64,000 bases of DNA from Dictyostelium discoideum (Eukaryota). Location of the stretch: positions 3,328,001 through 3,392,000 of the forward strand of contig CM000152.2 in NCBI GenBank assembly GCA_000004695.1, given 5' to 3'. Numbering within the stretch: position 1 is the first letter of the stretch; the number at the start of each line of letters is the position of its first letter. A program made the translations under genes and the position numbers. Positions 3,026 to 38,265 of the stretch are shown piece by piece. The notes under the pieces were generated by a model. It worked only from the letters and a program-made list of their open reading frames with translations. It was not told the DNA's origin and did not search any database.

Positions 3026-4198
3026 TAAACTATCAACAACAATAAATAAACAATAGATAAACAATTTACAGAACCAGATTCAAGCGAAGAAACTAGAAAA
3101 ACGGTGTTACGTTTAACAGAAAGATTCGGAGAGACTCATCCAGCATTTAGGATGGCTTCTTATAATGAAGCCGTTTCATTTGCAAAGAGTAAATTCAAAT
3201 TTTTAATAGTTTATATACATTCATCACAACATCCTTCTTCGAATAGTTTTTGCAAGTATGTTTTATCTTTATTTATTATTATCATTTGTTTTTGATTTTA
3301 TACTTACCAAAAATAAAATAATAAAGAGAGGTGTTATTTACAAAAGAAATTAAAGAATTTATTGAAGCAAATTATATATTTTGGGTATGTGATGTTTCAA
3401 CATCGATTGGTTTGAGAATGTGTAATTTATTAGAAGTTACAACTTTTCCAGCATTATCATTAATTTGTTGTAACAATGTACCAGGTTTAACAACATCATC
3501 ACAACCAGTGAGATTGGAATTATTCCAAGGTAATCAACTATCAACAAAGCAATCTGCAATGACAATTATTAGAACTTCAGCTTCACATTATGAACCTTCT
3601 TTAATTGCTGCTAAAGCTGATCAGTAAGTAAAATAAATAAATTAATAAATAAATATTAATAAATAAATATTTATAAAAATTCTAATAATCATTATGTGTA
3701 TACATATATATATATAGCGATTTAAGAGAACAAGATAGATTTATTAGACAAGAACAAGATGAAGCATTTTATCAATCACTTAAAGAGGATCAAGAAAAAG
3801 AAAGAATTAGATTAGAAAAAGAGGAACTAGAAAGATTAGAGAAAGAAAGAGAAGAAAAAGAAGAACAAGATAGAATAGATTTCCAAAGAGAATTGGAAGA
3901 AAGAAAACAAAGAAAACAAAAATTATTTATTAATGAGCCAAAACAAAAACAACAAAATGGTGTGGATGTCACTAAATTAGTCATTAGATTACATGATGGT
4001 TCAAAATTACAAAGAAACTTTTTAATCACTGATACAATCGAATTTGTAATGGATTTCATAGATACTCATATCCAAGAACCAATTGAAAACTATGTACTAT
4101 CAACTCATTATCCAAAGAAACAACTCTCAAATTTAAAATCCACCTTAAAAGATGAAGGTTTATATCCAGACTCTGTTTTATTTTTATCAGAATTATAA
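2748..4198 (+). CDS. UAS/thioredoxin-like plus UBX domain protein, FAF2/UBXD8-like; model join(2748..2859,3072..3255,3327..3623,3718..4198)
   Basis: N-terminal Ser/Thr-rich exon; exons 2-3 encode the FAF2-type UAS fold (KFKFLIVYIHSSQHPSSNSFCK|EVLFTKEIKEFIEANYIFWVCDVSTSIGL); exon 4 is a Glu/Lys/Arg coiled coil followed by a UBX domain (VTKLVIRLHDGSKLQRNFLITDTIEFVMDFI...YVLSTHYPKKQL); donors GTAAGA/GTATGT/GTAAGT, acceptors TTACAG/AAAG/TATAG, phases 1/2/2 consistent with track ORFs 3104..3295, 3331..3627, 3893..4198. Confidence 0.75.
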
Positions 4199-4318
4199 AA
4201 AAAAAAAAAAAATATAGCTTTTTTAAAAGAGAATTTTAAATAAATAAATTGGAGAGTTTATTACTATTTTAAAATAACTTCTTTTTTTTTAAAAAAAAAA
4301 ATAAAAAAAAAGTATGTT

Positions 4319-4349
<31 letters not shown>

Positions 4350-4450
4350 ATAAAAGAAAAAAAAAAAGAATTAAGAAAAAAAAAAAAAAAAAAAAGATAT
4401 ATACATTGTCTTAATACAAACTTTTTTTTTTTTCTTTTTTTTAGGTAATT

Positions 4451-4493
<43 letters not shown>

Positions 4494-4499
<6 letters not shown>

Positions 4500-5027
4500 A
4501 ATACATTTTGGAAGAATAAATTGAGTTTGAGGTTGTTGTGTTATTGATTTTCTTCTTGTAGATGTTACCATACTTGGAGAATTATTATCATTAATTGGAT
4601 TTATTATTTTTGAAATATTTGATCTTGAATCTCTTTGTGGTGATTGAATTTGTTGATATTGTTGTTGTTGGGCATGTTGTTGATATTGTTGTTGTTGCAT
4701 TTGTTGTTGCATTTGTTGTTGTTGCTGCATTTGCATTTGTTGTTGTTGTTGATATTGTTGATTTACAGAATGGTGATGAATTTTAATGACAGAGTCTTTT
4801 TTATTTTGTCTTCTTAATTTACTAACAAATGAATCCAATTTTGAGAAATAATCCAAGTAATCCGGTAATGGACATGAAAGATCGAATTGTAGTAAATTTA
4901 AAAATGAAATTTCTAATCTATTTAATTCATCTCTGGTAACACCACCAATATGACTATAGTATTCATTATTATAAAAGATATCTATATTAAAAAAAATAAT
5001 ATATATAAGTATATGTTTTTATTAATT

Positions 5028-5075
<48 letters not shown>

Positions 5076-5365
5076 TTACCATCTATATATTTAGAAGCAA
5101 CCATAATTGCAGTTATTAATAATCTATGAATATTAAAACTATTTATAATAAAATTTGTTTTTGAAATAATTCTATCAATATAAACTATAATCATAATGAA
5201 ACATTCTTTGGAACATGGTGAGAATTTTACAAGTCTAGTTAAATATTCAGTTATTGATATTTTTGGTACTTCGCTTGTAGGAGAAACGAATAGATTTGAA
5301 TGATATTGTGTACCAGCTTTTAATAATATCTATTAATTTTAAAAAATATAAGAAAAAATTGATTA

Positions 5366-5397
<32 letters not shown>

Positions 5398-5718
5398 TTT
5401 ATATTAAAATTTTTTAATTTAATAATAAAATTTAAAATATTAATTAAATCTTACATTATCACCGATTATTGGTAACTCTGTCAAAACATGACATAAACTG
5501 TAAAACAATGGTGTTTGATCTTCCTTTAATTCAACATTTTTGACATTCTCCAAACTATCTTGTATTATATCTAAAACTGTTGGTAATTTATATGGTAATA
5601 CTATATGATGAAAAGGGTGATTATTTAAACTACTATCTGGATACTTTTGTGAATAGTATGGGTCAGATTTCATCAATAAATATTTAGCATTTAATCTTTT
5701 TTGGAATTGGCTTGTCAT
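4494..5718 (-). CDS. PHO80-like (cyclin-U/P-type) cyclin; model join(5718..5455,5329..5080,4981..4494)
   Basis: Exon 2 encodes the cyclin box (ITEYLTRLVKFSPCSKECFIMIIVYIDRI...NIHRLLITAIMVASKYIDD), exon 3 continues IFYNNEYYSHIGGVTRDELNRLEISFLNLLQFDL and ends in a poly-Q tail; GTAAGA and GTAATT donors, TTAATAG/ATATAG acceptors, phases 0 and 1 verified. Confidence 0.7.
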
Positions 5719-7351
5719 TTTTTTTTTTTTTTTATTATTTTATTTTATTTTATTTTATTATTTTATTTTTTTATTTTATTTTATTTTATTTTATTTTATT
5801 TTGTTTATTTATTTAATTTATTTAAATTACTTTATATTTAAAAAAAATTTAAAAATAATTTTTTTAAAAAATAATAAAAAAAAATAAAAATAATTAAAAA
5901 ATTATATGGTATTTTATTACTTGTATTTTTTTTAAACTTATTATTATTATTATTATTATTTCTAATATAAATTTTTATTATAATTATAAAAAATTATAAA
6001 GAAAAATAAAAAAGAAATTATTTAAATAAAAAAAAACTATCTAATGTCGAAAAGTTAATTAATATATTATTTATATTTATATAATTTTTTTATTATTTTT
6101 ATTTTTTTTTTTATTTTTTTTTATTTTTTTTTATTTTTTTTTATTTTTTTTTATTTTTTTTTTATTCTATATTATTAAATTATTTTGTTGTTATATTATA
6201 TTATTTTTTTTTTTTTTTTTTTTTTTTAAATGTTATATCTTATAAAAAACAATTGAAATCGATATTTTAATTTTCTTTTTTTTTATTTTTATTTTTTATT
6301 TTTTATTTTTTATTTTTTATTTTTTATTTTACTTTATTATTTTATTATTTTTTTTAAAATTTTAGATTTGAAATTAAATTGTTAAAATATTAAAAATATT
6401 AATTAAAATTATTTTATTATTTAAATATTAAAAAAAAAAAAAATAAAAAAAAAAAAAAAAATGAAATTTAATAATGTTTTTTGTTTGTTGGTGTGTGTCA
6501 GGGTGTGTTTGTGTGTGTGAAAAATTTTGAGTGTTTTGTTTGGGTATTTGGGAAATTATTATAAAATCATATGAGATAGTTGGTAGTAGAAAAACAACCA
6601 TTAAAATGTACAAATTTAGTAATTTTATCAAGGAGCCCTAAATTTATAAATAATAATTATAATGGAAAAATAATAGGTGGGAATTTTAAAATGTGGTCAT
6701 AGTTTCACTATCACTATCAGTGTTTATTAATTTAAAGTTTATTTAAATTTTTTTTTTTTTTTTTTTTCTGGTTCTTAAAAAATTAAAAAAAATTAATTTT
6801 ATTTTATTTTTAGGTCTATAATTTTAGTGGGTGGGGGTAGTGTTTGGAAATAAAATTAAATTGTTTTTTTTTTTGTTTTTTTTTTTTTGAGATATTATTA
6901 ATTTTTTCAAATTTATTTAATTAATAAAAAAGTAACCCAATCTTTATATAGAAAAAAAAAAAAAAACCAAAAAATTAAATAATTCGTTTTTTTTACAATT
7001 TTTTTAAAAAAAAGGTGCATTATATCTAAAATTTTGTTGGTTTCTAGAATTTTATTTAGATTTAACAAACGAGAACTTTTTTTTTGAATTTTATTTTTTT
7101 TAATTTTTTTTTTAAAATAAACAAGACCAAATTTGGAATAAAATATTAATGGGGATAAAAAAAAGTTATATCGTGTTATATTGTGTTTGTGTTTGTGTGC
7201 ACAATTTTAAATATTAATACATATTTATATTGTGGGTGGTGTAAATAGTTTGAAAAAAAAAAAAAAAAAAAAAAAAAAAACCAATTTATTAATTTTTTTT
7301 CTTTGTCTGGATTTTTTTTTTTTTTTCAAAATTATTCTTTTAATTATTCTT

Positions 7352-7516
7352 TTAATTTTTATTTAATTCTTCAAGATCGTCTCCTAGTAAATTACCATTT
7401 ATATTTTTTGTAGTGTTTTCATCTAAATTTAAATTTATTAACTCAGAATTACCACTACTACAACTACTATTTTTAACTTCTTTTTGTTCATCTCCTTCGA
7501 CATCAACCAATAATAA

Positions 7517-7594
<78 letters not shown>

Positions 7595-7900
7595 GTTACT
7601 ATTATTGGTAATATTAATATTTGAAATTAGATTTGGTGATAAATCTATTAATTCTTCTAAATATGATTCCTTCTTATTATTATTAATATTATTTTCGTTA
7701 TTTGATTTTTTATTTTGTAATTTTGATGTAATTCCAACATTATTTTGGTTATTATCAGTATTATTACTATTTTCATTTCTATTATTATTTTCTGAGAATC
7801 CACCAAATAATTGTTTGGCCAATTTCTCCTTTTCTGGATCTATATTATTATGAGTTTGTTGATGTTTTTGAATTTGTTGTTGTGATAAAGTATTTTGAGT

Positions 7901-7931
<31 letters not shown>

Positions 7932-8397
7932 GGTGTGGCATTTTGTGGTGGAGTTTGTTTATTTCCAACAAATCCTTTTTTAGTCCATAATACCTTTGAT
8001 GGTTTTGGTAAACTAATTTTAGAAAATAAAAAAAAAAATAAAATAATTTTAGTAAATGTCTTTAATGATATTTTTAGATATTTAAAAGTAAAATAAAAAT
8101 AGTAGCAAAATAAAAAATTATAGATTCTAAAAATAAATACCCTATTGGTTTTGGAGCATTTTGATCAGGAACTGTTACTAATTGATTATTTGGATATTGT
8201 GGGTTTTGCTGTTGTTGTTGTTGTTGATTTTGTTGTTGTTGTTGTTGATTTTGTTGTTGTTGTTGATGTTGATGTGGTTGTAATTGTTGATCATTATTGA
8301 CAGGAACTAATGAATTGTTATTTAAATTAATTGTATCATCTTCACCCAAAAGTAATAGTTGTTGTGGTTGTTGAGGTTGTTGAGGGAATAATTGAAG

Positions 8398-8438
<41 letters not shown>

Positions 8439-8693
8439 GATGATTTGATGGAGGTTGATGTTGATGAACTGGGTATAATTGTTGTTGGTTATGATGAGGA
8501 TTAAATGGATCAGGTGGTGGAGGATATTGAAAGTTCAAACCCTTTTCATTTGAATGTGATGAACTACCATCAGATATATCAACCAATGGTGTATTCTTTC
8601 TTTTTTCATATGGAATATATTGTTTTCCTCCAACCTTATTTGAGTAATCATTAAATTTATTAAATATTTTATTAAACTAAAAAAATATAAAAA

Positions 8694-28913: not shown

Positions 28914-30497
28914 TTAATTATTAATTATAATTGTTTTTGGTGATTTATTATTTGAATATGTTACTTTTAAACCATTTGGTAATTGAGTGAAATCAATTGG
29001 ATTTTCATCTTGAGAATAAAAGTATTCTAAATGATTTAGTGTTGTTGAGATTGGTTGTAATAGTGAAGTATATTTATTGATTGTAGATGGTAAATAGGAT
29101 AGTATTAAATAAGTTACACTTGAAGGAATTGCTTTTATCATTGATTCATTTAATTTTACACTTGAGATTATTAATGTTTTAATTGATGATGGTAAATCAC
29201 CAGCTTTTAATTGTTGAGCAAAGTATTTACTTAATTTTAAAAAAGTTAGATTTGGTGGTAACACACCCTTTGCTAATGGTTTATTAAATTCATCACCAAA
29301 TTCTAAATGTTCTAAACTTGTTGGAAGGTCACCTACTTTAAGTGGTAAATTAAAATTAATTGACAAAATTAAGGTTTTCAATGTAGCTGATGTTGATGGT
29401 AGAATGAAATCTCTATTGAAATAGTGGCCTAAATTCAAAGATATTAAATTATCTGGTAAATGACCTTGTTTAATATCTTGGCTGAATGAACTACCAAATT
29501 GGATTTCAGTACAGGTTGATGGGAAACTACCAACTTCAAGTGGACAATTAAAATTCGAACCTTTGTTAAACAATACTTTAGTTACACCTGATGGAATGAT
29601 CCCACGTTTTAAAGGCTGATCAAAACCATTATTAAATCTAATCACTCTAACACAATTTGGTATATCACCAGCCTGTAGCCATTGATTATTCATACAATTA
29701 CCAATTTTAATATCAGTCAATGATGTAGAATCACGTGGTAAATAACCTTTGTCAAACACTCTTGCATGGCCACTTAAACCAATGTCAAGTGTGGTAAGTG
29801 ATTTTGGAATTTCGCCAAGTCTCGTACCGAAATAGGTGCTATTGATAACCAATGTTTTCACAGTCGATGGTATGAATGGTATAGTACTAACATATTTAGT
29901 TTTTGAATAAGTTCTTTGATTTTCAAAACCTTCTTCCAATACTAATTTTTTAATATGTTTTGGTATATCGGTTGGTTCAAGTATCACTTGTTTTGGATAT
30001 TTACCAATCTTTAGTGTTGATATTGATTTTGGTAATATTAATCCAAGATTTATATCTTTAAATGATTGTTTATCAAAACCAAATGATATTATTTCAATGG
30101 TTTTTGGAATTTTAATTTCATTTATTAAATCATTGAATCCTAAAAATGGATCAACTTTTTTAAAATTTAATTCCTTAATATAACAATTGATTTCTTTAAT
30201 TTCACTAAATTCTTTATAATCTTGTACTAAATATTTTTCATTTGAATATTGTTTATAAAGTTTACATTGTTTAAATATTTCATTCTTTATATATTGATTT
30301 TTTAATAATTTAAAAAATAATTCACTATTATCATTAATTTCTTGTTGTTGTTTATTATTATTAACTTTTTTTATAATTTTAAAAATAATACTATATTCTT
30401 CTTCTTCTTCTTCTTGCTCTTCAATTTCTTCGACTTTATCTTCTTTTAAGTTATTTGATGATTCTTTTGTTTTTTTTCCTTTTAAAAACGAAAACAT
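28914..30497 (-). CDS. FNIP repeat-containing protein (Dictyostelium-expanded family), 527 aa single exon
   Basis: Multiple about 22-residue FNIP repeats (FNNGFDQPLKRGIIPSGVTKVLF, FGSSFSQDIKQGHLPDNLISLNLGHYFN, FGDEFNKPLAKGVLPPNLTFLKL); acidic N-terminal region. Confidence 0.7.
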   Translation of the reverse strand: MFSFLKGKKTKESSNNLKEDKVEEIEEQEEEEEEYSIIFKIIKKVNNNKQQQEINDNSELFFKLLKNQYIKNEIFKQCKLYKQYSNEKYLVQDYKEFSEIKEINCYIKELNFKKVDPFLGFNDLINEIKIPKTIEIISFGFDKQSFKDINLGLILPKSISTLKIGKYPKQVILEPTDIPKHIKKLVLEEGFENQRTYSKTKYVSTIPFIPSTVKTLVINSTYFGTRLGEIPKSLTTLDIGLSGHARVFDKGYLPRDSTSLTDIKIGNCMNNQWLQAGDIPNCVRVIRFNNGFDQPLKRGIIPSGVTKVLFNKGSNFNCPLEVGSFPSTCTEIQFGSSFSQDIKQGHLPDNLISLNLGHYFNRDFILPSTSATLKTLILSINFNLPLKVGDLPTSLEHLEFGDEFNKPLAKGVLPPNLTFLKLSKYFAQQLKAGDLPSSIKTLIISSVKLNESMIKAIPSSVTYLILSYLPSTINKYTSLLQPISTTLNHLEYFYSQDENPIDFTQLPNGLKVTYSNNKSPKTIIINN

Positions 30498-30920
30498 TGT
30501 TTAAAAATTATTACAAAGATATGTTGATTTGTTGTGTAAAAAAAAAAAAAAAAATAAAAAAAAAAATTTAAAAATAAAAATAAAAAATGAAAAAAAAAAA
30601 AAAAAAGATATTTTCAAATATCCAATCAATCATTATTATAATAATAAAAAAGATATTTTTTAAATGGCTTATAGATTTGACTATGTGATGTTATGGGAAT
30701 ATAATTATTTTGAATTTTATACTTAAAATTAAATTTGATGATCTGGAATCAATTCATTGAAAAATATTTCCCCAAAAGTTTATGCCCAATTAAATTCAAA
30801 CTAATCCCTTTTTATTTAATTATGAAAAAAAATTGGTTTTTTGTGATAGTTGTAATCTATTCAAAAATATTAACAGTTATTCCTCAAAATGGTAGTTTTT
30901 TCTAGTATTCAAACTTTGAA

Positions 30921-31188
30921 TGTAATAAAGTTACTCTATAAAATTAATAGATATTAAATATGCATATTACATTACTAATTATAGTTGACACACATTTAAA
31001 TAATATAATAATAATAATAATAATAATACTGTCAACTCATTATGAATAATATAAATACTAAAGAATAATTGTATAAACAATATTGAATATTATAAATATA
31101 AACTAATATTAAATAAAGATAACAAAGTATTATTCAATTATATAATTATTAATTATATATATTTATAAAGCTAACAAGCTTTATTACA
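30921..31188 (+). repeat. 5' LTR (268 bp, TGTAATAAAG...CTTTATTACA)
   Basis: Direct repeat of 35623..35871 plus 38114..38132; no mismatches found by eye. Confidence 0.8.
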
Positions 31189-31190
31189 TT

Positions 31191-31203
31191 TGGCGACATC
31201 GTC
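31191..31203 (+). other. Candidate primer-binding site TGGCGACATCGTC, 2 nt downstream of the 5' LTR
   Basis: Begins with TGG as expected for complementarity to a tRNA 3' CCA end; position diagnostic. Confidence 0.45.
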
Positions 31204-31304
31204 TTTAAAAAAAAAAAAAAAAAAAAAAAAATATATTATAAATATAAAGTTATCAAATTATTCAATCAATTAAAATTTTACATTAGATTAAATTTAATTT
31301 AATA

Positions 31305-31341
<37 letters not shown>

Positions 31342-31344
<3 letters not shown>

Positions 31345-34300
31345 AGTAATAATGAAAACGTAATTTTTTCGGGTGATGGAAAAGGTTTATCATTTCGTAA
31401 ATTCAAACACTTACTCTTATTAATTCATGGCGAGGAAATATCGAAAGCTGATATTATTAGAAAACTAAGAAACAATGCATTGGAATATGCCGCAACATTG
31501 GATACAGACTTAACAGCAATGGAGATAATTGAAGATCTTAAAGATGCTTTTGATATTGGTGATAGTGATGATTTATCAGATTTAACAAAGTTGGGAGAAT
31601 ATAAATACAATACATTAGATATATTAGTTGGTAAATTTCTTTCAAAATGTTCAGCAGTTGATATTTCAGAAAAGTTTAAAATACAATTGTTTTATTCAGC
31701 TGTTGGTATTGAATTGGGTATTGAAATTACAAAATGTGCACCAAAATCATTAAAAAGAGCAATAGACATTGCAAAGTCTTGTGAAGATGGTTCAATTCGT
31801 ATGAGAGGTAGATCAATGTATACTGGTCAATTGGTTGCAAAAACATTACAAGAATTTGGAACTCAAAAGTATCTTGGTTCTGGATCTGGTTATACAACAT
31901 CACCACAGTACGTTACATCTCAAACTGAACAATCTACTGAAACTGAAGTATTAGCAACTCCAATTTATAAAAATCAAACATATTCACCACCACCATCACC
32001 TTATAAAGCACCACAAAATCAAGTAAATTCAATCACAAAATTTTGTAAATATTGCAAAAAGAAAGGTCATGTAATTCAAGAGTGTTGGTCTAAAGATAAA
32101 AAGAATAATTATAATGAGAATAAACAATCATATAATAATCATAGCACTAATGCAATTACAATGGTTAATGATAAAACGATTAATTCTATTGGAACTGATA
32201 GTATGAATGCAGCATTATTAATAAATGATAAGAATGTTAGAAGGTTAGTTGATACTGGTTCTTCTCTTACCATCATTTGGGAAAGTATTGCTAAAAAATT
32301 AAATTTAAAAGTTGAAGGTAAATCATTTTCAGTTAATTCAGCATCAAATAATGAAATTAAGATAGTTGGTAGTTGTGATACCATAATTAAATTAGGTAAA
32401 GCATCCGCAAAAGGTAATGTTAATATTGTTAAAGATAATGATACTTCAATCGATTGCATTTTTGGTGTAGATACACTTATTGGATTGAAATTAATAATTG
32501 ATTGCAAGGAAATGATCATTAAGAATCTTGAATTTAATGTTGGTACAAGATTAATCACCAGAGAAACCAAACCAATTGTTTGCAAAATTGATCTAAATAT
32601 ATTAGAAAAAGTATCAAAACCAATGGCTGAGTTATTAATCAAAAATGAAGAGATTTTTGAAACCAAATTGTCAAAACCAGGATCATTAATAGATGTTGAA
32701 CATTCAATTAAATTAACTGATGAAAATGTTTCTGTTTATACTCCACCATACAAAACTAGTCCAGCTGATAAAGAATTCATTGAAGAATACATTAAAGATG
32801 CATTAGATAAAGGTATAATCGAGAAATCAGATTCATCACAATACGGTTCTCCAATAGTCTTATCCAGAAAGAATGATAAAATTAGATTTTGTGTTAATTA
32901 TAAAAAACTAAATGACCTCACAATTAAAGATAGATATCCACTTCCATTAATTTCTGATTGTTGGTATTATCTCAAAGATGCAAAAGTTTTCTCAAAAATT
33001 GATCTTACTTCTGGTTATTATCAAATCAAAATGAAAGAAGAGGACAAGGATAAAACAACCTTTGTCTCTCATATGGGTCAATTTAGATATGTTGTAATGC
33101 CATTTGGATTATGTAATGCACCAGCAACTTTTCAAAGATACATGAATGAATTATTAAAAGATGAATTAAGAAAAAGTAATATTGGGTTTATTGACGATTG
33201 TATAATTTATAGCAAGAATAATGAATATCATATTGAACATGTCAAACTATTATTCGAAAAATTCAAAGAAAAAGGTGCAAAGTTACAAATAACTAAATGT
33301 GAGTTTGAAAAAGAAGAGATCAAGTTTTTGGGATATATCGTTTCAAAGAATGGTATTACTTATGATAGTTCAAAGTTTAATGAATTATTAAAAACACCAC
33401 CTCCATCAAATCAAAAAGAATTAATGAAATTACTCGGTACTGTCAATTACTTTAGAACATTCATTAAAAATTTCACTCATTTAACTTCATCATTTTATCC
33501 ACTATTAAAGAAGGGTGTTAATTTCAAATGGACTGATGAATTGGAAAATGATCGTGTAAAATTATTTACTACATTAGCACAAACTAATCTTTTAAGTTTT
33601 CCACAAGATACAGATGATAATGTTATTGAAACTGATGCTTCAATTATTGGTATTGGTGGTGTAATGATTCAAAATGGTAAACCAGTTTCTTATTATTCAA
33701 GAACATTAAACAACGCTGAAAAGAATTATTCTGTTACTGAAAGAGAATGTTTGGCAATCATTGAATCAATTAAATATTTTAAATCCTATATCAATGGTAG
33801 AAAAGTAAAAATCATCACTGATCATCAACCTTTGAAATATCTCTTAACTGGTAAATTTACTGATCGTATTACAAGATGGACTGTATTACTTCAAGAGTAT
33901 AATTACGAAATTATATATAGACCTGGTAAAGAAAACTTTTTAGCTGATGCATTATCAAGATGTCCAGATAGAGATCAACAGCCAATTGATTGTGATATTC
34001 CAGAAAAGATATTTACAATTACTCACTATCCAGTAGCTTCACCATCAACTACAATTTTACCAAGAGTCTTACCATCAAGATCAAATCAAACATCTAATGT
34101 TTCACCAGCTACAACAATTCAACCACCAAATTCATCAAGTTCAAATCAATCATCAAATATCCCACCAACAACAAACCAATCATCAAATATTACAAATCAA
34201 CCAATAAATACTTCATCAATGAATTTAAATCAATCATTATCAAATCCACCATCTCTTATTACAAATCAAGCAACAACCGCTAGATTATTGAATAGTGTAC

Positions 34301-35610
34301 CTATCTCAATCAACAATGATAATATTAATACAACAATTCCACAATTTACACAAGAGTCAATAAGAAAAGAGTTGGAAAAAGAAAATTATTATAGAGCAAT
34401 GTATAAATATCTTGAAGAAACAAGACTTCCAGACAATGCACAAGCAGCAAGAAGAATTTTGTTGGAGTCTGAATTTTATTCAATGATTAATGGATTTCTT
34501 TGTCACGGTTTAAAACATACTTTATCAAGTAAGAAATCTCATTTTAAACATCTTCAAATTGTAGTTCCAAAAACTATGACTAAATGGATAATGGAAATAT
34601 TTCATGATTCGCCACTTACTGGAGGACATTTTGGATTATTAAAAACTGTTGCAAAAATCAAAGAAAGATTCTATTGGATTGGTATGATTAAGGATATAAA
34701 AGAATTTATCGATAAATGTACAACTTGTTTACAAATTAAAAGAAAGTATGGTCCAAAAGAAGGTTTACTCATTCCAATTGAGATTGAACCTGAACCATTT
34801 AATACAATTGGTATTGATTTTATTGGTCCAATTACAAAAGATAATGCTCAAGTTTATTTGTTGGTTGTTATGGATTATTTTACTAAATGGCCAGAAGTTT
34901 TCTTTACCCTTGATATGGAAGGGGAGACTGTAGCTCAATTATTGTTGTATGAAATCTATACTAGATATGGGGTTCCAAAGAAGTTGGTTTCTGATCGTGG
35001 TAAGAATTTTTTAAGTAATGTAGTCTCTGGTGTTAATAAATTATTCGGTGTTCACAAATTAACAACTACTGCTTATCACCCACAATGTGATGGTCAAACT
35101 GAAAATTTCAATAATACATTAATTAAGATGCTCAAAGCTTTTATTGGTAATGAATTGTATGGCAATTGGGGTGAATTATTAAGATGTGTTTTATACTCAT
35201 ACAGAATTACACCACATGTTTCAACTGGTTTTTCACCCTTTTTCTTAATTTTTAATCGTCAACCAACTTTACCATTAGATACAACTTTAAATGTAAATTT
35301 TTATTCAAATTCACTAAGATTAGATTTCGCTGATAATTATGCACAATCCGTAAATAATAATCTTAAACGTGCCTTTTGGTTTACAAAGAATAATCATAAT
35401 CGTCCAACAAATATTCAAACAGGTGATTTTGTTTATTTACATACACCATATTCACAAACTTCTATTGGTCCAAAGAAATTCTATAAACCTTGGAGAGGTC
35501 CTTTTAAAATTCAAGAAAAAGTTAGCGATGTTACATTCAAATTAGATATGGGTAATCTTAGAGATCATAAAGTAGTCAATATTGAAAGATTGAAAAAAAT
35601 TTTCAACTAA
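31342..35610 (+). CDS. Retrotransposon Gag-Pol polyprotein (1422 aa, uninterrupted): CCHC zinc knuckle, aspartic protease, reverse transcriptase, RNase H, integrase
   Basis: CKYCKKKGHVIQECWSK (CCHC); LVDTGSSLT (protease DTG); RT motifs KIDLTSGYYQIKM, VMPFGLCNAPATFQRYMN, FIDDCIIYSKN (YxDD variant); RNase H IETDASIIGIGGVMIQ, TDHQPLKYL; integrase HHCC HDSPLTGGHFG...CTTCLQIK, catalytic GIDFIGPI, VVMDYFTKWPEVF, VSDRGKNF, YHPQCDGQTENFN. Confidence 0.9.
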
Positions 35611-35622
35611 AAGGGGGGGATA
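35606..35622 (+). other. Polypurine tract (CTAAAAGGGGGGGATA) immediately 5' of the 3' LTR
   Basis: seen directly; LTR starts TG at 35623. Confidence 0.7.
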
Positions 35623-35871
35623 TGTAATAAAGTTACTCTATAAAATTAATAGATATTAAATATGCATATTACATTACTAATTATAGTTGACACACATTTA
35701 AATAATATAATAATAATAATAATAATAATACTGTCAACTCATTATGAATAATATAAATACTAAAGAATAATTGTATAAACAATATTGAATATTATAAATA
35801 TAAACTAATATTAAATAAAGATAACAAAGTATTATTCAATTATATAATTATTAATTATATATATTTATAAA
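35623..35871 (+). repeat. 3' LTR, first 249 bp (interrupted after ...TATATATTTATAAA by the TRE5-like insertion; remainder GCTAACAAGCTTTATTACA at 38114..38132)
   Basis: Identical to 30921..31169; continuation found after the inserted element and its target-site duplication. Confidence 0.8.
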
Positions 35872-36196
35872 TTTTTTTTTTTTGAATTGGATAACGCAAT
35901 TATTATTTGCTTCTCCTTGAGATGCTAGATCTCATTTTATTTTTTTTTTTTTTTTTACAGGGTCTTTTTGATTAAAACATCTTTTTTGTCCAAACTTTTT
36001 TCTAAATCTTTTTTTATTTTATCGTCTGGTTCGTGATTGATGTTTATGACGTATTTGAATTGTTTTTTTTTTAATTGAGTTTTATCCACAATTTCGCTTA
36101 TTTTTTGTAGGCATTTGTGTTGCTTAATATTTGTGGTGTTGTTTGTGATTTTCATTTTATTTTCTTTCTATCTTTTTTATTTTTCTGATTAACTTG

Positions 36197-36257
<61 letters not shown>

Positions 36258-36553
36258 TTATAGAAAGTACTGAGTGAATTATTGTATTTTTTGAGATGTT
36301 TAGGAAGTTCTATTGCGGGTGTTGATGATGATTTGTGACACCCCTTGTCCTGTTTTATCAATTGGTGCGTGGTGTGTTATTTTGTTTTTATATTGTTGAT
36401 TTATTGAGTAAATTTTATTTGTTTTTATATTTGTTTCAGTTAGAAGTGCTGCGTCCAGCTTGTTGTTGTCTAAAACGGTGTTTATTATGCTGGCAGATTG
36501 GATGGTGTTGGATCCTTGGACGTTCCAAACACCTATTCTTATTGTGTTTTTCT

Positions 36554-37882
36554 TTATAGTTTTATTTGGGGTAGATTTTTATCTACCTTTTGAAGTTTCT
36601 GGTTTATTTTGTCTTCTAACTGATCTTTACTTTGTTCGTTGTGTTGTTGGTCTTGTGTGTTTGTGGGGTTTTTTGATTTATTGATTTGTTTTAGAATTTC
36701 CTTGTTGAAGTTGTCTATATCTTCATCCATTTTTGTTTTTATGCTTTTTTGTCCATATTCACCCAATTTTGGTTTGACTGGTGTTTTGTTGTTTGTTTTG
36801 TCTTGTTGTTTCTTTTTTGGTGTGTTTAACAATTTACTTGGTGAATCGATAATTTTCGATGGTGTACCATAGGTTGGGCTGAAACTCATGATATGTTTTA
36901 TTGGAGAGGAGAAGAACCATTGATTTGAAGGGATTGAAAGTGGGAATTCTATTTTTCTTATTGCATCAGTGTTTGGGCTGGTGAAGTCGAAGATATCATT
37001 TGCCTCTCTAAGTTTTTCTTCCGTTGTTAGTCCCTTTGTTTCGCCGTGTTGTTTTATTGGTGTATTGTATGGAGATGGTGGTTCGATAGGTTTTTCTGAT
37101 TTTGTTTTAATTTCTTGATTGTTTATCGATTGTGTATTGATCTCATTCTCTATTCTTGTTAGTTCATCTACGTTTTCTAGTGATGCTTCTATTACCTTTT
37201 GAGCTGTATCATCTAGGGCCATAAATGTTTTATCATTAGATGAGGATGTGATTGGTGGGATAATGATTGTTCTTTTTCCTTGTTTTGGTATTTGTTCTGA
37301 TGTAGATTGTGGTTGTTGTTCATCTGATTGTTTTTTATTTTTGTTTTCTTCTTGATTTTCTGGTAATGAGGTTTGCTCTCTCCCTCCTTTGTTGGAGTCT
37401 CCAATTAATGTTAGATTGTCTAGTTCAATGATAGTGTCAAATTCTTCTACGACTCTTTTCACTGTTTTGATAATTAGAGTTTCGCCTTTAATTTCTAATT
37501 TAATTAGTTTACATCCTTCATTTTCTATTACCCATTCTATTTCTGTGAGTGATTTATACCAATCAAAATCTGTATACATATTTTTTGGTCTTATAGTGGT
37601 TATAAATTGTCCTTTTAATTCTGCATCAAACATATTTACAAAATAGATTACTGTACTAATACTGTCTGTGAGAATTTTGAATGTATTATTACTTTTGATT
37701 AAAACATCTTTTTTGTCCAAACTTTTTTCTAAATCTTTTTTTATTTTATCGTCTGGTTCGTGATTGATGTTTATGACGTATTTGAATTGTTTTTTTTTTA
37801 ATTGAGTTTTATCCACAATTTCGCTTATTTTTTGTAGGCATTTGTGTTGCTTAATATTTGTGGTGTTGTTTGTGATTTTCAT
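36554..37882 (-). CDS. ORF1 of the TRE5-like element (442 aa, basic/Lys-rich, Gag-like nucleic-acid-binding protein); no ORF2 (RT/endonuclease) present
   Basis: Track ORF; its first 63 codons lie inside the direct repeat and are duplicated at 35955..36155; composition typical of LINE ORF1. Confidence 0.6.
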   Translation of the reverse strand: MKITNNTTNIKQHKCLQKISEIVDKTQLKKKQFKYVININHEPDDKIKKDLEKSLDKKDVLIKSNNTFKILTDSISTVIYFVNMFDAELKGQFITTIRPKNMYTDFDWYKSLTEIEWVIENEGCKLIKLEIKGETLIIKTVKRVVEEFDTIIELDNLTLIGDSNKGGREQTSLPENQEENKNKKQSDEQQPQSTSEQIPKQGKRTIIIPPITSSSNDKTFMALDDTAQKVIEASLENVDELTRIENEINTQSINNQEIKTKSEKPIEPPSPYNTPIKQHGETKGLTTEEKLREANDIFDFTSPNTDAIRKIEFPLSIPSNQWFFSSPIKHIMSFSPTYGTPSKIIDSPSKLLNTPKKKQQDKTNNKTPVKPKLGEYGQKSIKTKMDEDIDNFNKEILKQINKSKNPTNTQDQQHNEQSKDQLEDKINQKLQKVDKNLPQIKL

Positions 37883-37957
37883 TTTATTTTCTTTCTATCT
37901 TTTTTATTTTTCTTTAAAAAGTTAAAAATCTGGAAATTTTCTAATTAACTTGGTTCC

Positions 37958-37962
<5 letters not shown>

Positions 37963-38026
<64 letters not shown>
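37963..38026. repeat. 64-nt poly(T) run (poly(A) on the element strand) embedded about 70 nt from the 5' end of the TRE5-like element
   Basis: seen directly. Confidence 0.9.
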
Positions 38027-38029
<3 letters not shown>

Positions 38030-38145
38030 TCTTTTTTATATGAAAAATGAAATAATCAAAAAAAGAGATTGTTGTTGTTGTTTGTTTTTTTCGATCTCAT
38101 ATATATTTATAAAGCTAACAAGCTTTATTACATGAAAAACATCAA

Positions 38146-38254: not shown

Positions 38255-38265
38255 GGTTCGATTCC
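38255..38265 (+). promoter_or_regulatory. External B box (exB) GGTTCGATTCC 37 bp downstream of the tRNA gene
   Basis: Near-consensus TFIIIC B-box (GGTTCGAATCC) with no associated A box or acceptor stem; extra downstream B boxes are a known feature of Dictyostelium tRNA loci. Confidence 0.5.

Follow-up and report, generated by a model that had tools for sequence, protein, structure and literature searches.

DGLT-A is a Ty3/gypsy retrotransposon of Dictyostelium discoideum that was reportedly described by Glockner et al. in 2001. With Ty3 of Saccharomyces cerevisiae it shares the Ty3/gypsy architecture, alignable reverse transcriptase (RT)-RNase H (E = 1e-66) and integrase (IN; E = 2e-41) sequences (structures 7Q5B and 4OL8), and integration upstream of tRNA genes, which for Ty3 occurs at about 15 bp. 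The primer of Ty3 is initiator tRNA-Met, and no such counterpart is assigned to DGLT-A. The two systems differ in that Ty3 separates GAG3 from POL3 by a +1 frameshift and has a YLDD active site and targeting by contacts between IN and TFIIIB, whereas DGLT-A has a single frame, FIDD and a link to Tfc4, a subunit of TFIIIC (PMC6101501). DGLT-A was also treated by Spaller et al. 2016 (PMC5006619) and Kling et al. 2018; the family, its tRNA-gene targeting, its single open reading frame (ORF) and its orphan primer-binding site (PBS) are already published. Here we consider one DGLT-A copy in a 64-kb window of D. discoideum AX4 chromosome 3 (GenBank assembly GCA_000004695.1, contig CM000152.2, positions 3,328,001 to 3,392,000 of the forward strand), where an earlier sequence-only reading had placed an apparently transposition-competent, very recently inserted element at 30921-35871. 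The element is an already annotated and catalogued DGLT-A copy, gene model DDB_G0280521. We hold with high confidence the whole explanation developed below, in which this catalogued copy carries a nested TRE5-A.2-type non-LTR retrotransposon in its 3' long terminal repeat (LTR) and probably has an impaired integrase.

Every feature of DGLT-A membership that we tested is present in the window copy (domain order, gag-pol, LTR/PBS/polypurine tract (PPT), tRNA distance, identity). Its gag-pol ORF is an exact match to XP_641178.1, the product of DDB_G0280521 on AX4 chromosome 3, which adjoins DDB_G0280443 (an FNIP-repeat protein) on one side and DDB_G0280523 on the other. The ORF shares 98% identity with the 1437-aa DGLT-A consensus polyprotein AAG37039.1, and the two fall into a common 90%-identity cluster; the DGLT-A-like gypsy naming of the sequence-only reading was therefore right. 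The likeness to the family extends to the single gag-pol ORF, a CX2CX4HX4C motif, protease (PR)-RT-RNase H-IN order, the missing chromodomain, an LTR of about 265-268 bp, the placement of PBS and PPT, and a site at -13 relative to a tRNA gene. The window copy differs from the consensus in its length (1422 vs 1437 aa), in a private deletion of net 14 aa in the integrase linker, and in the interruption of its 3' LTR. No further DGLT-A or TRE5-A fragments were found elsewhere in the 64-kb window. The parts of the element, in window coordinates, are as follows.

30917-30920, + strand: DGLT-A target-site duplication, left copy, TGAA; TGAA borders both element ends and is single in the L004 empty site (below)
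30921-31188, + strand: DGLT-A 5' LTR, 268 bp, TG...CA, with a 10-bp perfect terminal inverted repeat (TGTAATAAAG...CTTTATTACA) and (ATA)8 at 31005
31191-31207, + strand: putative PBS, TGGCGACATCGTCTTTA, 2 bp past the LTR, matching the published PBS at 16/17 positions
31342-35610, + strand: gag-pol ORF, 1422 aa, DDB_G0280521 / XP_641178.1, with no stop or frameshift
35396-35399, + strand: in-frame deletion junction, where ATAA stands in place of 46 nt of the family sequence (net -42 nt) and HN in place of LDKAQELQKTNYDKGR
35609-35622, + strand: PPT, AAAAGGGGGGGATA, directly before the 3' LTR; identical in the complete copy L002 (below)
35623-35871, + strand: DGLT-A 3' LTR, first 249 of 268 bp, 100% identical to 30921-31169
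38114-38132, + strand: DGLT-A 3' LTR, last 19 bp (GCTAACAAGCTTTATTACA), displaced by the TRE5-A.2 insertion
38133-38136, + strand: DGLT-A target-site duplication, right copy, TGAA, on the same basis as the left copy

The boundaries of the element follow from its LTRs. A direct repeat (30920-31169 = 35622-35871, 100% identical) consists of one flanking A and 249 bp of LTR, (ATA)8 among them. Past 31169 the 5' LTR continues as GCTAACAAGCTTTATTACA up to 31188, followed by TT and the PBS; the 3' LTR gives way at 35871 to a T12 run. This 19-mer occurs in the window at 31170 and 38114 only, with 0 mismatches and 0 chance matches expected, and a 3' LTR rebuilt from 35623-35871 and 38114-38132 equals the 5' LTR at 268/268 positions. 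The identity of the two LTRs over 249 bp, including the (ATA)n run, had been seen from the sequence and extends on exact alignment to the full LTR. The end assigned to the element at 35871 has to be moved: the LTR is 268 bp rather than 249, 35871 is the point of insertion of TRE5-A.2, and the whole DGLT-A element, nested element included, spans 30921-38132. Within the LTR, TATAAATA occurs at LTR positions 130 and 171, and AATAAA at LTR position 192.

What separates the two parts of the 3' LTR is a 2227-bp element on the opposite strand, bordered by a duplication of LTR sequence.

35857-35871, unstranded: TRE5-A.2 target-site duplication, first 15-bp copy, ATATATATTTATAAA, equal to LTR positions 235-249
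35872-38098, - strand: TRE5-A.2-type non-LTR retrotransposon, 2227 bp, lacking ORF2, which splits the DGLT-A 3' LTR at LTR position 249/250
35872-35883: A12 tail of TRE5-A.2
35966-36186 and 37693-37913: putative duplicated B-module of TRE5-A.2, a 221-bp perfect internal duplication
36554-37882, - strand: TRE5-A.2 ORF1, 442 aa, DDB_G0280523
38099-38113, unstranded: TRE5-A.2 target-site duplication, second 15-bp copy, ATATATATTTATAAA
38146-38219, + strand: tRNA-Gln(UUG) gene (ARAGORN; Rfam tRNA, 67.4 bits)

TRE5-A.2 elements are non-autonomous, lack ORF2 and are mobilised in trans by TRE5-A.1; their family has its integration sites 47+/-3 bp upstream of tRNA genes (PMC5391098). Judged by primer matches and architecture, the nested element fits TRE5-A.2. 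When we used TRE5-A ORF1 quantitative PCR primer sequences taken from PMC4559204, Rep-109 matched exactly at 37410-37438 (29/29). Of Rep-108, the initial 16 nt matched (16/16), once at 37762-37777 and once more within the duplicated module. The TRE5-A ORF2 primer Rep-75 had no match in the element at <=3 mismatches, and neither the ORF list nor Pfam contained an apurinic/apyrimidinic endonuclease (APE) or RT ORF within the 2227 bp. In the 442-aa ORF1 Pfam recognised no domain, and all six of its homologues are unnamed multicopy D. discoideum proteins labelled "hypothetical". The 221-bp duplication fits the B-module. Further, the 3' terminal 93 nt recur beside TRE5-A sequence in another DGLT-A locus (L003, below). 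The element resembles TRE5-A.2 in that ORF1 is its sole ORF of the family, in its putative B-module duplication and poly(A) tail, in a target-site duplication of the variable-length kind (15 bp here) and in a 5' junction exactly 47 bp upstream of tRNA-Gln(UUG). It differs in nothing notable; its target happened to be the DGLT-A LTR and not unique upstream DNA.

The same tRNA gene, the sole match in an Rfam scan of the whole window, also fixes the position of the older element. The DGLT-A 3' end (38132) lies 13 bp upstream of tRNA-Gln(UUG), and published insertions lie 13-18 bp upstream of tRNA genes in 18 of 20 cases, with a family range of 13-33 bp (PMC5006619, PMC6101501). TRE5-A.2 has LTR sequence on either flank, and its 15-bp duplication consists of LTR sequence as well; DGLT-A must therefore have arrived first and TRE5-A.2 second. 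A single tRNA gene has thus received two RNA polymerase III (Pol III)-targeted retrotranspositions, and the locus shows which came first.

In GCA_054859385.1 (L004) and GCA_054859355.1 (L005), two more assemblies that bear the D. discoideum label, the syntenic GFA - tRNA-Gln - FNIP interval contains neither element. Both empty sites have TGAA just once, at a distance of 9 bp from the tRNA; that of L004 reads ...aaaacttTGAAaaacatcaaGGTTTT (in a longer form ...aaaacttTGAAaaacatcaaGGTTTTATAG). This directly proves the 4-bp TGAA duplication and shows the insertion to be specific to the AX4 lineage. The FNIP coding sequence of these two assemblies differs from that of AX4 by 2.7-4.2%, and intergenic DNA by more, so the empty sites bound the age of the insertion only loosely. 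Such divergence looks high for one species, and the two may represent cryptic lineages. Their DGLT-A polyproteins are about 92% identical to the window copy.

The empty sites also bear on the idea that gag-pol has been domesticated here, its frame staying open because selection preserves a function for the host. A 4.3-kb frame that is open and annotated as a host gene model would be expected of such a gene. A locus that is empty in two close lineages is, however, too young and too polymorphic for this, the LTRs, PBS and PPT have all been kept, and the intactness of the frame is explained by a very low substitution rate (below). On the strength of the presence/absence polymorphism and the retained LTRs, PBS and PPT we reject domestication, which we consider highly improbable.

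The domains of the catalogued copy lie within the 1422-aa ORF as listed here.

aa 235-248: CCHC
aa 293-379: PR
aa 510-667: RT, with FIDD at 616
aa 730-853: RNase H
aa 1075-1134: IN zinc finger
aa 1152-1247: IN core
aa 1361-1419: SH3-like C-terminal domain (CTD) of IN

Pfam gives the order aspartyl protease, RVT_1, RNase H, integrase zinc finger, rve core and integrase C-terminal/SH3, with all matches above cut-off except two C-terminal IN models; no chromodomain was matched in the ORF at E<=0.01. The ORF ends 3 aa beyond the SH3-like/Integrase_p58_C match; this short C-terminal extension and the missing chromodomain set it apart from Skipper. The motifs are intact: CX2CX4HX4C (CKYCKKKGHVIQEC at aa 235), LVDTGS, FIDD, TDAS/TDH/ADALSR, HHCC and D,D,E. 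ORF calling, Pfam and the motif check thus agree with the sequence-only reading that the 1422-aa frame runs uninterrupted through CCHC-PR-RT-RH-IN; its further observation that gag and pol form one continuous frame holds as well and is a published character of the DGLT-A family. The FIDD that it had called unusual is a common minority variant. FIDD is present in all 8 DGLT-A copies, where Ty3 has YLDD. Outside DGLT-A, 20 of the 120 closest Ty3/gypsy RT-RNase H homologues (about 17%) have F at this position, 15 of them with FIDD, including many plant elements.

One length difference sets the window copy apart. In protein and DNA alignments, LDKAQELQKTNYDKGR is missing only here and in the orthologous copy of an independent assembly, for a net loss of 14 aa. 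The segment is invariant in all 7 other copies examined, including two only 92% identical. Its counterpart in the Ty3 alignment is LEHAQIEMETNNNQRR, which immediately precedes the SH3-like CTD of integrase (Ty3 intasome entry 7Q5B). The site of the deletion is the linker between the catalytic core domain (CCD) and the CTD, just upstream of the Pfam SH3_Tf2-1 match. Except for the ortholog, no other copy in the protein cluster carries the deletion, and the variant therefore has no detectable progeny. As for the other departures in length from the 1437-aa consensus, some further copies have them too: in gag, a 6-aa gap (no NRSPQM) and two 1-aa gaps, and between RNase H and integrase a 7-aa insertion, NPPSLIT. 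The comparison of this ORF with other DGLT-A copies, which had been proposed to see whether those are degenerate, shows a frame here that is open but, through the private integrase deletion, short of full length.

To this structure the independent assembly GCA_054883475.1 provides a check. Its orthologous locus (L001) is 99.6% identical over 12 kb, has the same order of FNIP gene, DGLT-A (1422 aa), TRE5-A ORF1 and tRNA-Gln, and keeps the 42-nt deletion, the identical 250-nt repeats and the nested TRE5-A.2. The identical ORF length of 1422 aa answers the concern that a sequencing error might hide a frameshift; none is hidden. Over the 12 kb, AX4 and this locus differ by 7 substitutions, 4 of them in DGLT-A and 3 in TRE5-A.2 (0 in the unique flanks), and by the sole indels listed below them.

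31593, 32242, 32244, 32414, 37376, 37384 and 37399: AX4/L001 substitutions
36199-36216 and 37962-37980: AX4/L001 indels, where two long poly(T) tracts of TRE5-A.2, each about 61-66 nt, change in length by 18-19 nt

This clustering suggests base-level errors in the repeats of one assembly, or slippage. Were the apparently intact ORF and the identical LTRs an artefact, with reads of several DGLT-A copies collapsed in the Sanger-era AX4 assembly, one would likewise expect all 7 substitutions to lie inside the two retroelements and none in unique flanks. That explanation does not account for an independent assembly reproducing the architecture, the ORF length, the 42-nt deletion, the identical repeats and the nested TRE5-A.2, nor for a private deletion, which marks copy-specific sequence and not a consensus. 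We consider an assembly artefact largely refuted and scarcely credible. Two of the AX4 residues, R301, directly before the protease DTG, and G358, read G and V in the independent assembly, as in all other copies; both lie beside the protease active site.

The sequence-only reading had taken the element to be very recent, apparently transposition-competent and possibly active; in its strongest form, this would make it a fully autonomous and currently active master copy. Much of the locus agrees with this: the 1422-aa ORF is open with every catalytic motif present, the LTRs are identical at 268/268 positions, PBS and PPT are in place, the insertion is missing from two related lineages, and transcription of DGLT-A ORF domains has been reported (PMC5006619). 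We nevertheless find it improbable. The integrase linker, invariant elsewhere, carries a private 14-aa deletion, and there are no known progeny; AX4 reads R301 where all other copies have G (as does the independent assembly); and the published analysis counts no full-length AX4 copy, Spaller et al. 2016 finding 0/20 AX4 DGLT-A insertions full length (PMC5006619). The same count upholds the remark that intact members are rare. The interrupted 3' LTR, moreover, makes the DGLT-A insertion older than the TRE5-A.2 lying in it, which counts against recency.

The identity of the LTRs carries less weight than it might seem to. The substitution rate of D. discoideum is 2.47e-11 per site per generation (PMC7466956), and by our own arithmetic two 268-bp LTRs gain about 1.3e-8 differences per generation, so that zero differences allows up to about 2e8 generations. 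Another DGLT-A copy in GCA_054883475.1 (L003, on CM142510.1; locus positions 3573-8594) has 253 nt of LTR that are 100% identical and yet a frameshifted ORF (1225 + 234 aa). In two more copies, L002 and L006, the LTR pairs are identical save for one 3-nt slippage each. Because a frameshifted copy has it and the substitution rate is so low (about 2.5e-11 substitutions per site per generation), LTR identity is diagnostic of neither recency nor activity, and the step from identical LTRs to a very recent insertion fails: the identity bounds the age only at roughly 2e8 generations. An insertion that is evolutionarily young, being confined to the AX4 lineage, together with an extremely low substitution rate accounts for both the open ORF and the identical LTRs, and activity is not required.

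At L003 itself, the ORF is annotated as 1428 aa by means of an artificial intron. TRE5-A sequence, from the C-module and the B-module, directly adjoins its 5' LTR, so that the stacking of DGLT-A and TRE5-A at a single site is seen here a second time.

By contrast, the copy L002 of GCA_054883475.1 (JBTAPE010000033.1:1293104-1305417; locus positions 3551-8594) is a structurally complete DGLT-A. Its ORF encodes 1437 aa, with 3 differences from the published consensus, and its LTRs (268/271 bp) are uninterrupted and match except for one ATA unit. PBS and PPT are those of the family, the duplication is TTTT, and the copy lies 13 bp upstream of tRNA-Met(CAU), in opposite orientation relative to the tRNA. 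The window copy, whose 5' LTR is 99.3% identical to its LTRs, belongs to the same family and shares with it PBS, PPT, the distance of 13 bp from a tRNA gene and a 4-bp duplication. It is set apart from L002 by its interrupted 3' LTR, shorter ORF, nested element and orientation to the tRNA; in the interior the two are 96.7% identical, with many small indels in the untranslated region (UTR) and gag. L002 is the better candidate for an active master copy. For specialists in Dictyostelium transposons, this complete 1437-aa copy in a newer assembly is a more interesting by-product than the window copy, which is already a reference gene model.

Both priming signals named in the sequence-only reading are present, the PBS TGGCGACATCGTC at 31191-31203 and the PPT at 35609-35622. 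The published DGLT-A PBS is TGGCGACATCGTCTTTC, placed 2 bp past a left LTR of about 265 bp, and Spaller et al. 2016 found nothing complementary to it, either among tRNAs or in other genomic sequence (PMC5006619). A primer complementary to the PBS would have a 3' end reading ...GACGATGTCGCCA-3'. When compared with three tRNAs (Gln-UUG, Met-CAU and Phe-GAA), the PBS matched in the CCA only. A search of the window for the PBS complement at <=3 mismatches, as Tf1-like self-priming would need, returned the PBS itself as the sole match; with no partner in the window, we reject self-priming of this kind. The sequence-only reading had held that a PBS matching no Dictyostelium tRNA 3' end would tell against it. 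The literature does report no match, but this is true of the whole family and does not show the window copy to be dead. Because DGLT-A has clearly transposed with that PBS, the orphan PBS is a gap in knowledge and not proof of a dead copy.

Together, these results suggest the following history. DGLT-A integrated 13 bp upstream of tRNA-Gln(UUG), making the TGAA duplication. Its targeting may have been guided by Tfc4, as taken over from the literature: the RNase H and the integrase N-terminal domain of DGLT-A bind this TFIIIC subunit in two-hybrid and pull-down assays, and the authors propose that the binding guides the DGLT-A intasome to DNA just upstream of tRNA genes (PMC6101501). Later, a non-autonomous TRE5-A.2 retrotransposed to the canonical -47 position of the same tRNA gene, inside the DGLT-A 3' LTR (249/250), creating the 15-bp duplication and leaving the final 19 bp of the LTR beside the tRNA. 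Either after the DGLT-A insertion or in a master copy, the ORF lost 42 nt in frame from the CCD-CTD linker. In a mutation-accumulation study, indels, often in multiples of three, far outnumbered substitutions in D. discoideum (PMC7466956), and such a spectrum fits a deletion after insertion in a copy whose LTRs are still identical.

What this history leaves of the copy's mobility depends on its two defects. Polyadenylation soon after AATAAA would put TRE5-A.2 in U5 of the 3' LTR, outside the genomic RNA. The nested element would then not by itself prevent use of the copy as an RNA template, and the LTRs of its progeny would be complete again; this probable placement in U5 speaks for an active master copy. 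From its sequence, the window copy can probably still be transcribed and translated. The integrase is probably impaired, and this would be the more serious defect of the two.

Some points weigh against this account. The nested element takes its name from primer matches and architecture. The 14-residue deletion falls outside every Pfam-defined domain, and its probable effect on integrase is read from conservation. It may have arisen after insertion or in a master copy without other known progeny. The probable position of TRE5-A.2 outside the transcribed part of the 3' LTR, finally, is deduced from AATAAA at LTR position 192.

The transposition competence claimed for the element combines features it has with features it lacks. 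The ORF is uninterrupted and has all catalytic motifs. The conserved full-length protein is absent, integrase being without 14 residues that are invariant in 7 other copies, and in place of two contiguous LTRs there is a 3' LTR split by 2227 bp of TRE5-A.2 plus a 15-bp duplication. We regard autonomous competence of the window copy as unlikely; at best it could be mobilised in trans by a complete 1437-aa copy. In 2016, DGLT-A was inferred to be no longer able to amplify in D. discoideum (Spaller et al. 2016). A more permissive possibility, which we regard as unlikely, is that the family is still alive in this species and that the window copy yields both protein and genomic RNA and moves, either autonomously or with help in trans from the complete 1437-aa copy. 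Since no complement to the PBS is known, that would require a primer other than a canonical tRNA 3' end.

Several minor observations concern the surroundings of the composite insertion. The DGLT-A 5' LTR lies 423 bp from the start of the FNIP-repeat gene DDB_G0280443 (window 28914-30497, - strand), whose transcription leads away from the LTR. The interval between the FNIP and GFA genes has grown from about 1.5 kb to about 8.8 kb by the 7.2-kb composite insertion. Inside the protease region lies an antisense ORF of 175 aa with a TTG start (window 32139-32666, - strand), also present in L003, which is probably a chance ORF in AT-rich DNA. Downstream of tRNA-Gln by 36 bp, at window 38255-38265 and outside any tRNA, the tRNA B-box consensus GGTTCGATTCC occurs and is kept in the diverged L004. 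It looks like an "external B box" of the kind known downstream of many D. discoideum tRNA genes.

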